From Acidobacteriota bacterium (GTDB lineage: Bacteria > Acidobacteriota > UBA6911 > RPQK01 > JAJDTT01), in NCBI GenBank assembly GCA_965217775.1, contig CBDCJH010000002.1, positions 5,088,001 through 5,152,000 of the forward strand: a stretch of DNA of 64,000 bases. Direction: 5' to 3'. The position numbers and the translations under genes are program-made. The notes beneath the pieces were generated by a model, which did no database searches, was not told the DNA's origin, and saw nothing but the letters and a program-made list of their open reading frames with translations. This document shows positions 50,387 through 54,862 of this stretch, in pieces. The number at the start of each line of letters is the position of its first letter. The stretch's first letter is position 1.

Positions 50387-51325
50387 TCAGACTGAGTTCC
50401 ACGACGAATCGAGGGTGATCGTTTTGGATGTCATGGCCTTCATGGTGAAGATTAGAACCAGAATATTGTAGGTCGTGTCGAACGCCTCAGCGACGCACTC
50501 ATGCGGCACATTATTCCTGTCGAGGAATGGGATCAAGACAGGTCGAGTCATCCTGCAACCGATTGGCAACACTGGCCAAAGGAAATGATCGGGGGTAATC
50601 GTGGTGTCGTTGGGTAGACCAAACTGAGTAATGAAGGAGGGTGATGCCTCAATGCGCCGAACCGAGGCCCACATTGCGTTATCTCCAAATCCATCAGTCT
50701 CAACGGGATTCAGGACATAGACGACGCACGCGCTGTGGTTGGTCCGGGCGTATTCTCGGATTGAGGCATAGATGGAGGCCCCGAACTTCTTCGCAAGGCC
50801 GATCGGGGTTTTGATTCCTAATTCGCAGTCTGCAGCGTGGTCCGAAAAGGTGTTTCCCTTGAAGATCGCAAAGCGGGCGAAATTATTCGCCTCGCGCTCG
50901 AACTGATCTGTGATCTCCGGTGCAAGGGTCTTACGACAATCTTGGAAGAACCGGAACAACTTGCGATGCGTTGGCATCTCATGATGGGCAATTTCATGGA
51001 GTTTCAAGAAAGTCTGTTTAGCAAGTACGACACTGCCGTCGACGTGGATGAGTTTTTCACCGGCATCGTACAGGGCCAATACTTTGGCAATCGCTGACTT
51101 GATAAGGGCCCCCGTTCTGGTCGCCTTATCGTTGACATAGGAGAGAAGGGCGCGGCGATCAAAAGCGCTGGTGGGCGCAACCTGAACCTTGGCAGCCGCA
51201 AGAATGTCAGCTATGGGGATCGGGTATTTGTTCCAAGCATCGGCTCGGTCGAGGAGCCTTCTTGATCGCTCCTCGACCGCGCGCAGGTCTCCGGGATCAA
51301 GGCTGCTGTCGTCAGGTTTTATCAC
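50387..51325 (-). CDS. ImmA/IrrE-family metallopeptidase (CapP-like)
   Basis: HEIAH zinc motif followed by EREANNFA; overlaps the HTH gene. Confidence 0.88.
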   Translation of the reverse strand: MIKPDDSSLDPGDLRAVEERSRRLLDRADAWNKYPIPIADILAAAKVQVAPTSAFDRRALLSYVNDKATRTGALIKSAIAKVLALYDAGEKLIHVDGSVVLAKQTFLKLHEIAHHEMPTHRKLFRFFQDCRKTLAPEITDQFEREANNFARFAIFKGNTFSDHAADCELGIKTPIGLAKKFGASIYASIREYARTNHSACVVYVLNPVETDGFGDNAMWASVRRIEASPSFITQFGLPNDTTITPDHFLWPVLPIGCRMTRPVLIPFLDRNNVPHECVAEAFDTTYNILVLIFTMKAMTSKTITLDSSWNSV

Positions 51326-51677
51326 GGGGTAATTTCCTGTGAGATCGAAGGAATTGGAGATACCGTATCAATTCAGATTCTTCCTCAGATGTCAGTTGAT
51401 GCTCGGAAAAAGCCGCAACTCTGCCACGTCTTTCTTCGCTCCGTTTGGTTACTGCCGCGACGTATCCAGCCAGTTCCATGAGCCTTTCGAAGCTGATGCC
51501 GTAGGTCTCCGCCAGTGCATACAGGATATTGGGCGAAGGCTTCTGGATTCGGTCATTCTCAATCTGGCTGAGATAGGCGTTTGATACTCGCCTATTCGTT
51601 GCATCTTCGACCGCGCGCAGTGTCATTTTTCGGTCTGTCCGAATCGATATGAGATATTCTCCCAGCGTTGTCTCCAT
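51312..51677 (-). CDS. XRE HTH repressor (CapH/ImmR-like)
   Basis: LRAVE...VSNAYLSQIEN..I.KPSP; purine-rich ribosome-binding site before ATG 51677. Confidence 0.9.
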   Translation of the reverse strand: METTLGEYLISIRTDRKMTLRAVEDATNRRVSNAYLSQIENDRIQKPSPNILYALAETYGISFERLMELAGYVAAVTKRSEERRGRVAAFSEHQLTSEEESELIRYLQFLRSHRKLPRDKT

Positions 51678-51749
51678 GACCCCCCTTTCGATGGCTTCCT
51701 TGGTCAAGCGGACGTTTCTTCTCTAAACATCTTGGCGTCACCCTTCAGG

Positions 51750-51847: not shown

Positions 51848-52546
51848 ATGACCGGAGAAGTCAACATGCAGATTGTGAGGGCTTTCGATGAATGTCTTTT
51901 CGGCGTGGCAGTGGCCAAAGCCGACTTCGATTTCCAGGCTTTCAAAGTAGCCGACCCCAAGCCCACGGGTCGACAGCTACTCGAAGTGGCAGGTTTCAGG
52001 CCGGCGGAAGAGCATCTGCTTTTCCAGTTGCTCCAAGACGGGGCGCTTGAGGAGCGGCGCCTTGAAGAGACCGTTGAGCTACGTAAGAAAGGAGCGGAGC
52101 GCTTCATAGCATTCCGAAGTGATCGGTCTTTCCGCGTCGAGATTGACCAACGGCGTTTCGAATGGGGCGCAACCCAGCTGACCGGGCTGACCGCGAAGCG
52201 GATGGTCGGCGCAGACCCTTCGTGCACTGGAGTCTGGCTGGAGCGGCGAGACGGTCCCGATCTCTTCATCAAGGACTCCGACATTGTGAAGCTCACGGCA
52301 GCAGGGGTCGAGAAGCTCCGCACTGGTCCGTCATTCGCGCTCTCGATCGAGGGTAAGGAGTTCCAGTGGTCTGAGCCGACCATCTCCACGGAGCAGATCG
52401 CCCAGCTCGGAGGCTGGGATCCGTCGCAGGGCGTTCAGCAGATCGACCTGGACACAAACGAAGCCCGTACTCTCAAGCTGGATGAAATCGTCGATCTGAG
52501 GAAAATCAAGACCTTTGCGAAAAAGATCGGGTGGCAACGTGGCTGA
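51848..52546 (+). CDS. Multi-ubiquitin-domain protein, three beta-grasp repeats (BubA/BilA-like)
   Basis: Three repeats of about 70 aa (PTGRQLL..AG...ETVEL..GAERF; TGL......DIVKL..GVEK; EQIAQLGG...EIVDL); C-terminal glycine (WQRG). Confidence 0.85.
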   Translation: MTGEVNMQIVRAFDECLFGVAVAKADFDFQAFKVADPKPTGRQLLEVAGFRPAEEHLLFQLLQDGALEERRLEETVELRKKGAERFIAFRSDRSFRVEIDQRRFEWGATQLTGLTAKRMVGADPSCTGVWLERRDGPDLFIKDSDIVKLTAAGVEKLRTGPSFALSIEGKEFQWSEPTISTEQIAQLGGWDPSQGVQQIDLDTNEARTLKLDEIVDLRKIKTFAKKIGWQRG

Positions 52547-52949
52547 GCGCGAACACCGCCTTGAGGAAGAATACAATCTCATCGCCACGATCTTTCGGAG
52601 TGTCGTTCGCTCGGGGGATTGGTTTCTTATTCCGGATGACGTTCGAGCGACACGACTCGGCTGGACTCCAGATCCGTTTCCGGTTGCGTTTCACGCGCAG
52701 GCACGACACCCAGGTCAGGTGCCGTACGGAATCTATGTGTCATCGTCCGCCCGGATCGGCGGCCAAATTCCGAACAATTTCAGCGCCAACGTGAACCATC
52801 GGCCGCCGTTCGAGGGGCCGTGGGGTGTTCTTTCTTGGCAAGGCGATGGCCATGGCATTCCCTGGATCCCGGCACAACGGATCCGCAAGGGGGCCAACCT
52901 GCTGAACTTTGTCATCACGTTCGAAGAAAGGTTCAAAGAAGGTGTCTGA
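52539..52949 (+). CDS. Prokaryotic E2-like protein without cysteine (BubB-like)
   Basis: HP...PYGIY, NNF, WGVLSW, W.P....GANLLNF; GTG overlaps the Ubl stop; lies between Ubl and JAB-E1. Confidence 0.75.
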   Translation: MAEREHRLEEEYNLIATIFRSVVRSGDWFLIPDDVRATRLGWTPDPFPVAFHAQARHPGQVPYGIYVSSSARIGGQIPNNFSANVNHRPPFEGPWGVLSWQGDGHGIPWIPAQRIRKGANLLNFVITFEERFKEGV

Positions 52950-54327
52950 GGCCTCCAGAGAATGGAGACTCCGTTTTGGGACCGAGGCGCAGTACCAAGC
53001 ACTTCGGGCCGCGCTCCTACCTGAAGGATATGCGAAAGATCGCGAGCACGGCGCCTTTCTCTTCGCCTCTCCAGCCGACGATGCGGGACTGGACATCGTT
53101 GATGTCGTCGTGCTCAAGCCAGCCGATTTTGTTGTGCAGTCGAGCTGCTACTTGGAGCTGCACGAAAATGTGCTCCAGAAGATGATCGTCCATGCGCACA
53201 GGACAAATACTACACTAGTCGAGGTCCACTCACATCCCCATGCGGACGGGCCACTAGTGCGTTTCTCTCCCTTTGATTGTAAGGGCTTAGCCGAAATCGG
53301 ACCGCAGGTGTCGTGGCGACTTCCTGGGCGACCTTATGTCGCCGTGGTCTTCGGTCGGGATGGGTTCGATTCCCTCTACTGGGAGGGTCGAGAGCGGCGG
53401 CCGCAAGGCGCCGTGGACCTCGTCGTCGCGGGACAGTTGTTACTCGCGAGCCGTGAATCCGAGCGCTCTTGGAGGAGAAAAATCGTGGATAGATTTGATA
53501 GGCAACGGATGATCTTCGGAGACAATGGGCAGAGGCGCCTGCGCGCCACGTCAGTCGGTATCGTCGGTGGGGGAGGGCTAGGTTCATTCATGGTACTGGA
53601 ACTTGCCTATTTGGGGATTGGGAAGATCGTGATCATCGACGATGATCTGCTGGAGATCCCGAACCGGAACCGATTGGTGGGCGCTTGGGCGTCGCACGCG
53701 GTAGGAAAACCCAAAGTCCAGCTACTTCGCGACCTAGTTATGCTCATCGACCCTGATATCGAGATCGAGGTGGTGCAGGCCCGGGTCGAAAAACCCGAAG
53801 CAGAGGCTGCCCTTGCAAATGTGGATATTGTTGTGGGGTGCGTCGACAACGATGGCCCCCGTTTCGTGCTGAATGAATTATGCTGCCAACAAGGTCTGCC
53901 GTTAATCGATGCTGCAAGCGATACTATTCCCGAGAAGGACAGTGTTCTTTTCGGAGGAAGGGTTTGCGTTGCAACGCCGGAGACAGGCTGCCTCATGTGT
54001 TTCAATGTATTGGACCAAAATGAAATTCAAGACTACTTCGCTTCTCCGGAGCAACGGGCTGACCAGCTCGCGGTCTACGGCGTACCCGAGAGATCCTTAG
54101 GTGATGGAGGTCCATCGGTGATCACGGTCAACGGAGTGGTAGCGTCGATCGCAGCGACCGAGATGATGGTCCTGGTGACCGAGATCCGAACTCCGATAGC
54201 ACACCAAGAATGGCGTGGTGATGAGGGACGCCTGATTCCTGTCGTCGACCGTGAGGAAGACTGCTATTACTGCGGCTTGCGCCCCATCAACAGTCAGAAG
54301 GACTTGGCCGGCGGCGTGGCACAGTAA
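52942..54327 (+). CDS. JAB/JAMM peptidase fused to ThiF/E1 adenylation domain (BubCD-like)
   Basis: EHGAF...EVHSHP...FSPFD; RFDRQ, GGGGLGS, NRNR, GCVDN, CLMC...CYYC. Confidence 0.9.
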   Translation: MSEASREWRLRFGTEAQYQALRAALLPEGYAKDREHGAFLFASPADDAGLDIVDVVVLKPADFVVQSSCYLELHENVLQKMIVHAHRTNTTLVEVHSHPHADGPLVRFSPFDCKGLAEIGPQVSWRLPGRPYVAVVFGRDGFDSLYWEGRERRPQGAVDLVVAGQLLLASRESERSWRRKIVDRFDRQRMIFGDNGQRRLRATSVGIVGGGGLGSFMVLELAYLGIGKIVIIDDDLLEIPNRNRLVGAWASHAVGKPKVQLLRDLVMLIDPDIEIEVVQARVEKPEAEAALANVDIVVGCVDNDGPRFVLNELCCQQGLPLIDAASDTIPEKDSVLFGGRVCVATPETGCLMCFNVLDQNEIQDYFASPEQRADQLAVYGVPERSLGDGGPSVITVNGVVASIAATEMMVLVTEIRTPIAHQEWRGDEGRLIPVVDREEDCYYCGLRPINSQKDLAGGVAQ

Positions 54328-54373
54328 GCCGAGACAGTCGCGTTTCCGCTCGAACCATTTCAAAAGGCGTTCC

Positions 54374-54760
54374 TCAACCGTCCCATTGTTCTGCGCGTCG
54401 ACGACCTCCTGCCGCTATCGGGCCGGCCCAATTGAGATCGTCGCCCGACATGCGCATCTCGTCCATAGAAGCACCTCTCCCGGATGTAGCGGATCGCCCG
54501 CTCCACTTTCCACTTCGTCTGGGCGCAATTGGGTTGGAAGGCTTGCAGCTCAATCCCCCAGTGACGGCTGAACCACAGAAACTCCCGGTGTCGGTTGACC
54601 GACCGCCATCCGAGAGCTTGTCCCCGATGATGATTGCTTTCATCTTGTCGAACAGAAGTTCCCTCGGCACACCCCCGAAGTAGCCATACGGTGCCTCCAA
54701 GCCTCGCATCACCAACGGCATAGTCTGACGAAATTAGTACCGTACCGCAGCTGAAAGAGC
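54374..54760 (-). pseudogene. IS21-family transposase (IstA) relic
   Basis: YFGGVPRELLFDKMK, then after a frameshift AQTKWKVERAIRYIR. Confidence 0.8.
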
Positions 54761-54862
54761 CGGAACTACGCGAAGTTCAGTTTCCCTGGGTACCGCGGAG
54801 GAGTTTCGAATCATTGCACGGGTTTCGTGGGAGTCTGCCTCAGCGAGTGGCGCACCCCCCCC

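Follow-up and report, generated by a model that had tools for sequence, protein, structure and literature searches.

A cysteine-free E2-like protein with a candidate serine nucleophile in a BubE-less operon of an Acidobacteriota bacterium

How could a ubiquitin-like conjugation pathway operate when its ubiquitin-conjugating enzyme (E2) contains no cysteine? This question is raised by a short operon in a 64,000-nucleotide (nt) stretch of an Acidobacteriota genome (assembly GCA_965217775.1, contig CBDCJH010000002.1, positions 5,088,001 to 5,152,000 of the forward strand). This whole stretch is called the window here, and positions are counted from its first letter. The operon encodes, in this order, a polyubiquitin-like protein ending in Gly, an E2 and a fusion of a JAB peptidase with a ubiquitin-activating (E1) enzyme, with CapH and CapP genes on its flank. 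A Cys-free E2 is in itself not new. In Table 1 of Iyer et al. 2006, the Cys-free E2 of operon class 6e is listed as an ‘inactive E2-/RWD like’ domain, and in 2024 a Ser-dependent E2 activity was reported for the Bub pathway (Ye et al., 10.1101/2024.11.21.623953). The Type I Bub example referred to throughout is BubAB, BubCD and BubE of Citrobacter sp. RHBSTW-00271 (PDB 9ea4, 9eae and 9eav; Ye, Gong, Chambers and Corbett, 10.1101/2024.11.21.623953). We consider it likely that the window protein serves a Bub-like (class 6E) pathway as its E2 and belongs to a subtype lacking BubE, in which the ubiquitin-like protein (Ubl) would be relayed from Tyr379 of the E1 to Ser99 of the E2 and the JAB domain would serve in deconjugation. 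The features of the operon on which this reading rests are the following.

51848..52546, + strand: BubA-like Ubl with three Multi_ubiq stretches (Pfam Multi_ubiq, E 1.6e-36)
52539..52949, + strand: BubB-type, Cys-free E2 of 136 amino acids (aa) with a predicted UBC fold, starting at GTG; assigned from homologues and fold
52725..52727, + strand: codon of E2 Tyr63, which aligns with BubB Asp299; 85 of 88 aligned rows have Tyr here, paired with the Asp of the Pseudomonas koreensis, Citrobacter and PF14462-clade proteins
52833..52835, + strand: codon TCT of E2 Ser99, the proposed oxyester nucleophile and, by alignment, the equivalent of BubB S333
52942..54327, + strand: BubCD-like fusion of a JAB/JAMM peptidase and an E1 (Pfam ThiF, E 1.1e-41; weak Prok-JAB)
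53227..53277, + strand: JAMM metal motif HSHPHADGPLVRFSPFD (H-x-H...S-x-x-D), intact in the translation
53989..54273, + strand: E1 segment from CLMC to CYYC (a Zn-type CxxC pair) holding the crossover loop, with no Cys between the two CxxC motifs
54076..54078, + strand: codon TAC of crossover-loop Tyr379, the proposed E1 oxyester site and putative counterpart of BubCD Y370; the loop alignment is approximate

The open reading frame (ORF) of the E2 extends from GTG 52539 to TGA 52949 and its 136-aa translation contains no Cys, with WGVLSW at residues 95-100. In database searches 77 homologues were found, most of them exactly 136 aa long and beginning at the same place (30 aligned). Because the homologues share this length and start, the GTG at 52539 is supported as start codon; the alternative start TTG 52515 (144 aa) was without homologue backing. 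When the E2 sequence alone was used, no match was obtained in Pfam (E up to 10), NCBIfam, PADLOC or the PDB, and BubB was reached only through profiles and fold. The protein thus lies below the gathering threshold of Pfam PF14462 Prok-E2_E, with no match even at E 10, and is best described as a divergent homologue of PF14462, not as a member at the level of the model. The family profile (A2), on the other hand, matched Citrobacter BubB (9eae_C) at E 1.5e-7. An AlphaFold2 model calculated from the family alignment had a mean pLDDT (predicted local distance difference test) of 95.6. Its best Foldseek match was BubB 9eae_C, with template modelling (TM) scores of 0.62/0.66, and VIA-align superposed the model on Citrobacter BubB with Z 12.2 and a root mean square deviation of 2.5 A over 117 residues. 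The same tool gave Z 7-8 for UbcH7 and UBE2D2, values which taken alone are middling by its own note, with about 109 residues aligned over residues 1-116 of the E2. The modelled window protein is therefore predicted to have the UBC core fold and to belong to the UBC/E2 superfamily.

The absence of Cys from a protein of 136 aa is by itself not unusual, and it is the conservation within the family that goes beyond chance. An exhaustive HMMER search (E up to 0.001) yielded 106 cluster representatives at 50% identity, of which 87 were aligned with the window protein (88 rows, mean column identity 19%). The 19 representatives that were omitted from this alignment comprised fragments, partial matches and a 939-aa repeat protein, plus four full-length rows. 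No conserved Cys column was found across the family alignment. Among the polar residues Ser99 is conserved best, being Ser in 87 of the 88 rows. Fourteen of the 19 omitted representatives cover the same column and 13 of them have Ser, including all four full-length rows (P0091, P0106, P0144 and P0171). Tyr63 is Tyr in 85 of the 88 rows, and further near-invariant columns are W28, W42, P90, W95, W100, W109, G118, N120, R7, E11 and R131. A run of Ser at residues 68-70, about ten residues past an HPG motif, was also considered as the site of the nucleophile and was rejected, as its columns are not conserved. The PF14462 Prok-E2_E model matched 46 of the 88 rows. Most representatives are stand-alone E2s of 126-137 aa; 18 of the 106 exceed 200 aa, the E2 being C-terminal in 17 of these and N-terminal in P0136, and in the 13 rows that match Multi_ubiq the E2 stands behind the Ubl domains. 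A word-indexed search had returned no longer fused relatives at all, which the exhaustive search exposed as a false negative.

To which residue of a characterised E2 does Ser99 correspond? The active-site residues of Citrobacter BubB are D299, S333 and H335, with S333 as the published nucleophile (Ye et al.). The connection was made through the E2 of a Pseudomonas koreensis plasmid, which contains QRWSRH as in Citrobacter but reads ...SRHNSAWRP. In a profile alignment the stretch W95...P111 of the window protein aligned without gaps to NWQRWSRHNSAWRP of the P. koreensis E2, and Ser99 fell on the Ser of WSRH. The P. koreensis E2 in turn aligned to S104/H106/D70 of the Citrobacter chain, which are S333/H335/D299, with a one-residue gap exactly where the Citrobacter ‘SW’ arises. 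Furthermore, hhalign of the close E2 family against the stand-alone PF14462 clade (PDNFYV...WGCFSWH) gave a probability of 99.35% over 122 columns and set Y63, S99 and Q101 against the Asp, Ser and His of that clade, respectively. When ten homologues were aligned with MAFFT, the S99 column was Ser in eight and Cys (KYCIH) in two, the latter being two of four haloarchaeal plasmid proteins. Because Ser and Cys alternate in this column, followed by His in most lineages, it is taken as the nucleophile position, and through the bridging homologue Ser99 aligns as the counterpart of BubB S333. The earlier note on this DNA, made from the letters alone, had described a 136-aa E2-like product that is free of Cys and whose WGVLSW motif places a Ser where an E2 nucleophile is expected. 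The translation, the predicted UBC fold with BubB as its nearest structural neighbour (Z 12.2), and the alignment of this Ser with S333, with the Ser of the PF14462 S-x-H motif and with the haloarchaeal Cys all bear this out, and the conservation of the Ser among homologues is as the proposal demanded.

The two haloarchaeal proteins of the Cys type come from Natribaculum and Salinigranum (L021 3029-3445 and L027 1820-2236), and the two of the Ser type, with LSWH, from Halorubrum and Halorarius. The two types may be a thioester and an oxyester version of the same fold.

Two residues downstream of Ser99 the window protein has Gln101, in a variable column, and no His. In the Asp column it has Tyr63, which is the obvious candidate for activating Ser99. 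Two other groups of E2s deserve mention with regard to these positions. Nearly all rows of the stand-alone Asp/Ser/His clade (alignment A3) have a Cys at the second position ahead of the Ser (WGCFSWH); identity to the first row of this alignment is 50-70% (P0167: 41%), and the WGC Cys may reflect shared ancestry only. The E2 of a Mycolicibacterium chubuense plasmid (L023 3076-3477) has Tyr in the Asp column and S-R-K in place of S-x-H, and its locus has an ImmA/IrrE gene upstream and no DUF6527 gene annotated nearby.

The JAB-E1 ORF ends at 54327 and encodes 461 aa from GTG 52942 or 472 aa from TTG 52909; residues are numbered from the GTG. The protein matched Citrobacter BubCD (PDB 9ea4) at E 1e-12 over residues 65-407, across both domains. 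Its motifs are the JAMM motif HSHPH...SPFD, for which the Citrobacter BubCD counterpart is HSHPGGFLVFSDTD, the Rossmann motif GGGGLGS, VGCVDND, CLMC (350-353) and CYYC (441-444). All adenylation motifs of the E1 are readable, and its crossover loop is free of Cys. Past the first CxxC, the loop has Y-G-[VI] as its one invariant pattern in the window protein and 13 genomic relatives (L001-L013). The Tyr of this pattern, Tyr379 (390 when counted from TTG 52909), is kept in 15 of 15 sequences (window, L001-L013 and a Tenderia plasmid) in a loop that is otherwise variable. In the clade this Tyr lies 9-13 residues ahead of a P[SA]V strand, Tyr379 itself being 12 residues ahead of PSVIT. Y370 of Citrobacter BubCD, which is chain index 372 (offset 2, per D104 at index 106), lies 9 residues ahead of the same strand. 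By its position, Tyr379 would be the counterpart of Y370.

The Ubl of the window matched the multi-ubiquitin protein of E. coli ZDHYS365 in the PDB by sequence (9cd2, E 7e-27; 9d59, E 2.6e-23). Ubl and E2 are encoded by two ORFs that lie in different frames, and the stop codon of the Ubl overlaps the start of the E2 by 8 nt (GTGGCTGA); likewise, the E2 stop overlaps GTG 52942 of the JAB-E1 ORF by 8 nt. The Ubl ends with ...KKIGWQRG directly before the stop, so that its Gly is already exposed. It fits the description of Type I Ubls by Ye et al., who give these one to three beta-grasp domains and a reactive Gly at the C-terminus. Ubls ending in ...RG-stop and separate from the E2 are also encoded in the related loci L001-L007, L012 and L013, and Ubl-E2 fusions with ...KRG|F junctions occur in the same clade (L008-L011 and the Tenderia plasmid). 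We also considered that a frameshifted BubAB fusion or a sequencing error had created the Ubl/E2 junction, and discarded this explanation, as both the stand-alone 136-aa form of the E2 and Ubls ending in ...RG-stop turn up repeatedly, in genomes independent of one another.

In the mechanism that we propose, the E1 domain of JAB-E1 would first adenylate the three-domain Ubl at its C-terminal Gly232. Crossover-loop Tyr379 would then take over the Ubl as a tyrosyl oxyester and pass it on to the E2, where Ser99 would carry it as a seryl oxyester, and the E2 would finally transfer it by aminolysis onto a Lys of the target. The intact JAB domain would be the deconjugating enzyme, which recycles or removes conjugates. 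This role is assigned to it because the Ubl ends at Gly, leaving nothing to mature, and because BubE is absent. We infer that the same Tyr/Ser relay may operate throughout the clade with Tyr63-type E2s.

The earlier note had correctly read GCVDN and the zinc-binding CLMC/CYYC pair in the E1, with no Cys shortly past the first CxxC, and had concluded that the Ser of the E2 receives the Ubl straight from the adenylate. In such a direct transfer the E1 would do no more than adenylate, and Ser99 would attack the acyl-adenylate, with no covalent E1 intermediate. A crossover loop without Cys is what this predicts, and E1-like enzymes of the ThiF/MoeB type, which are nearest to the E1 domain in sequence, can act without a covalent protein intermediate (MoeB/MoaD; Iyer et al. 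2006). In Ye et al., moreover, a Citrobacter BubA-BubCD adduct still forms with Y370F, although it was judged off-pathway, and no tyrosyl ester between E1 and Ubl was directly seen. Direct transfer leaves unexplained, however, why the Tyr should be invariant in 15 of 15 sequences of a variable loop. In Citrobacter, Y370 is the sole invariant residue of the crossover loop and Y370F abolishes conjugation in cells as well as in vitro; Y342F in BubBD, the E. coli enzyme of Type II, abolishes the product; and the crystal structures show the Tyr placed against the Ser/His of the E2 (Ye et al.). Because the Tyr is invariant and Y370F abolishes the published conjugation, the Tyr-to-Ser relay is better supported than direct transfer, which we consider unlikely.

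A second explanation, which follows the reading of Iyer et al. 2006, is that the window protein is a non-catalytic E2 variant of the ubiquitin E2 variant (UEV) or RWD-like kind, which would scaffold or present the Ubl or the target while the chemistry takes place elsewhere. The protein indeed lacks Cys, the Asp and His partners of the Ser are missing in the clade, and three of the 88 aligned rows gave weak RWD matches in Pfam, in keeping with the ‘inactive E2-/RWD like’ label. A purely structural protein is nevertheless hard to reconcile with a Ser that is the most conserved polar residue of the family and that shares its column with the Ser of S-x-H in active relatives and with Cys in two archaeal homologues. 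In Citrobacter S333A/H335A abolishes conjugation, and in E. coli the E2 substitution S106A kills activity (Ye et al.). In addition, a scan of the operon revealed no other candidate transferase and no E3. A non-catalytic role is thus quite improbable, and we retain the view that Ser99 would act as the nucleophile of a Tyr-to-Ser relay.

The second property that sets the locus apart is the absence of the serine protease BubE. According to Ye et al., Type I operons consist of a BubAB fusion, BubCD and BubE (DUF6527), and all Bub operons possess bubE; the Methods of the companion paper state that the operon set was drawn from DUF6527-containing operons. A clade without BubE therefore falls outside the published set by construction. 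No DUF6527 (PF20137) was found in the window, within 3 kb of the related loci (0 of 14; 106 flanking ORFs scanned) or in the whole genomes that bear related loci (0 of 5), whereas all six plasmid loci with Asp/Ser/His-type E2s have it. The only DUF6527 copy of the host genome lies 690 kb off, in a Type II Bub operon. When 24 E1 sequences were placed in a maximum-likelihood tree, one side of a branch with support 96/97 consisted of the 15 rows of the Tyr/Ser type; in the input of this tree the Asp/Ser/His rows included their JAB domains and the Tyr/Ser rows the E1 domain only, and several sequences were near-copies. As judged from these sequence comparisons, the Tyr/Ser, BubE-less loci form a distinct Bub subtype. 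The literature searched, which comprised the two 2024 preprints (Table S1 of Ye et al. aside) and papers on regulators, contained no account of a subtype that lacks BubE or has the Tyr, and the lineage appears not to have been described before.

The Type II operon of the host genome (G000:C2:4399197-4400836; L015 8197-9836, - strand) encodes a DUF6791-ThiF fusion of 397 aa followed by a DUF6527 protein of 149 aa, and adjoins a DDE transposase.

The place that BubE occupies in published operons, directly downstream of the JAB-E1 gene, is taken up in the window by the following feature.

54360..54776, - strand: frame-broken transposase-like remnant, seen in stop-to-stop frames

By eye, the two broken frames of this remnant (54360-54776, -) resemble what we take to be pieces of an IS21 IstA transposase; a Pfam scan of the remnant gave no match at E 0.01. 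The JAB and E1 parts, which are fused in the window, are separate, frame-shifted genes in the nearest relatives and split in L001-L013, and in the A run ahead of the E1 start (window 53470-53490) there is a length difference of 2 nt relative to L004, L006 and L007. The fusion may be genuine or it may be a homopolymer indel in the assembly. It is very improbable that the operon is decaying and no longer works, with BubE lost to the downstream transposase insertion and the JAB-E1 fusion a frameshift artefact: the remnant at the expected place of BubE, the 2-nt difference at the JAB-E1 junction and the second, complete Bub operon of the genome would fit such decay, but DUF6527 is absent from the whole clade and not from this locus in particular, all three ORFs have their full length, their motifs are intact and they are coupled by start/stop overlaps, and fused (Citrobacter; Ye et al.) as well as split (L001-L013) JAB/E1 arrangements are found among working relatives.

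Several points weigh against the reading of the window protein as a Ser-dependent E2 in a Tyr-to-Ser relay. Two of the three residues that are called invariant in Type I E2s are absent, the Asp being replaced by Tyr63 and the His by Gln101. The Ser99 column is itself not without exceptions, as Ala stands there in one representative and Pro in one fragment. Two direct HMMER alignments placed the family Ser, with low posterior confidence, on Citrobacter chain residue 108 (S337), four residues beyond S333; we dropped the equation of Ser99 with S337 after the P. koreensis bridge, which points to the loss of one residue in Citrobacter and to an ‘SW’ there that acts as a decoy. On the E1 side, MAFFT placed the Citrobacter-type Tyr in another column than the Tyr of the clade, and the match between Tyr379 and Y370 is one of position, within a loop that is flexible. 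The sampled loci cluster phylogenetically and L008-L010 are near-identical, so that the 0 of 14 for DUF6527 amounts to fewer independent observations. Finally, in Ye et al. no oxyester was trapped, the intermediates being deduced from mutants, and no phage protection was seen for any Bub operon.

Compared with Type I Bub (class 6E.1), the window shares the multi-ubiquitin Ubl with a C-terminal Gly, the CapH/CapP neighbours, a Cys-free E2 with UBC fold and Ser in the S333 column, and a JAB-E1 whose Cys-free crossover loop bears a conserved Tyr; a mobile or defence-island context is found among its relatives as well. It differs in that Ubl and E2 are encoded by separate, overlapping genes with the Ubl at Gly-stop, whereas in Type I they form a fusion from which the JAB domain releases the Ubl. 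Further differences are Tyr63 in place of Asp299, the lack of His at +2, the lack of BubE/DUF6527 across the clade and the separate branch of the E1 domains. PF14462 Prok-E2_E proteins, named ‘E2/UBC family protein’ by NCBI and present on Mesorhizobium, Deinococcus and Rhizobium plasmids, resemble the window E2 in their length class (126-137 aa), and the loci of their Asp/Ser/His type have the same order of Ubl, E2 and JAB-E1. These stand-alone E2s, unlike the window protein, carry PDxF...FSWH with Asp, Ser and His, and in Rhizobium (L016), Mesorhizobium (L019) and Deinococcus (L020) a gene for a ‘phosphotransferase’ of about 480-490 aa stands between JAB-E1 and DUF6527. This gene lies outside the published Type I scheme.

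The logic of the pathway is also that of Type II Bub, which consists of BubA, BubBD (a DUF6791-ThiF fusion) and BubE. Unlike in the window, the Type II E2 is fused to the E1, a JAB domain is missing and BubE is present; the Ser of the Type II E2 is accompanied by Lys and His (Ye et al.). With canonical eukaryotic E2s (UbcH7, UBE2D2) and the E2 domain of Cap2 the window protein shares the UBC core fold. It departs from canonical E2s in having Ser for Cys and a P-P-F-x-G-x-W stretch for HPN, and in aligning with them over residues 1-116 only; BubB was described as a UBC fold without the two C-terminal helices (Ye et al.).

How might the operon be regulated? Upstream and divergent from it lie a repressor with a helix-turn-helix (HTH) domain and an ImmA/IrrE-type peptidase, as in immune operons regulated by CapH/CapP.

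50387..51325, - strand: CapP-like ImmA/IrrE metallopeptidase, the regulator partner (PADLOC capP, E 6.8e-10; weak Pfam Peptidase_M78, E 0.0071, below the cut-off)
51312..51707, - strand: CapH-like HTH repressor of the XRE family, in divergent orientation to the operon (Pfam HTH_3, E 4.8e-10; PADLOC capH, E 1.7e-7)

The HTH and M78 pair is also complete in L001, L004, L007 and L013, while L002 has the M78 ORF only and L005 the HTH ORF only. CapH and CapP together occur in 31% of Bub operons (Ye et al.). The operon is probably under a CapH/CapP switch that responds to DNA damage or phage. Genes for restriction-modification, AbiJ, TIR, deaminase, integrase and transposase proteins neighbour the related loci, and from these neighbours and the CapH/CapP pair we infer that a role in defence or stress is plausible.

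It is conceivable, though we hold this only tentatively, that these loci constitute a third, uncatalogued Bub type that lacks BubE, occurs in at least eight phylum-level groups according to database records, uses a Ser-Tyr pair in its E2, carries a pre-matured Ubl in many members and relies on JAB for deconjugation. If this is true and the Ser-Tyr site reacts differently, the chemistry or the class of targets could differ from published Bub; examples would be a longer-lived oxyester between E2 and Ubl, or Tyr63 as a second hydroxyl relay facing the Tyr of the E1. So far, Cys-free Ubl conjugation has been tested in two bacterial systems only, both from operons containing DUF6527. The present family is a sizeable sister lineage (106 clusters) that keeps the Tyr of the E1 and the Ser of the E2 and drops the Asp/His partners and BubE. 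It thereby offers a natural test of which residues are needed for Ser to act like the Cys of an E2, and of which protease removes the tag. The archaeal Ser and Cys homologues could likewise serve as a matched pair for oxyester and thioester forms of one fold. For annotation, E2s of this kind are at present called hypothetical and are missed by Pfam, NCBIfam and PADLOC.

A last observation concerns the 939-aa protein among the representatives, P0121, in which nine separate stretches match residues 61-118 of the E2. The pattern suggests that P0121 consists of tandem repeats of a portion of the E2 fold.

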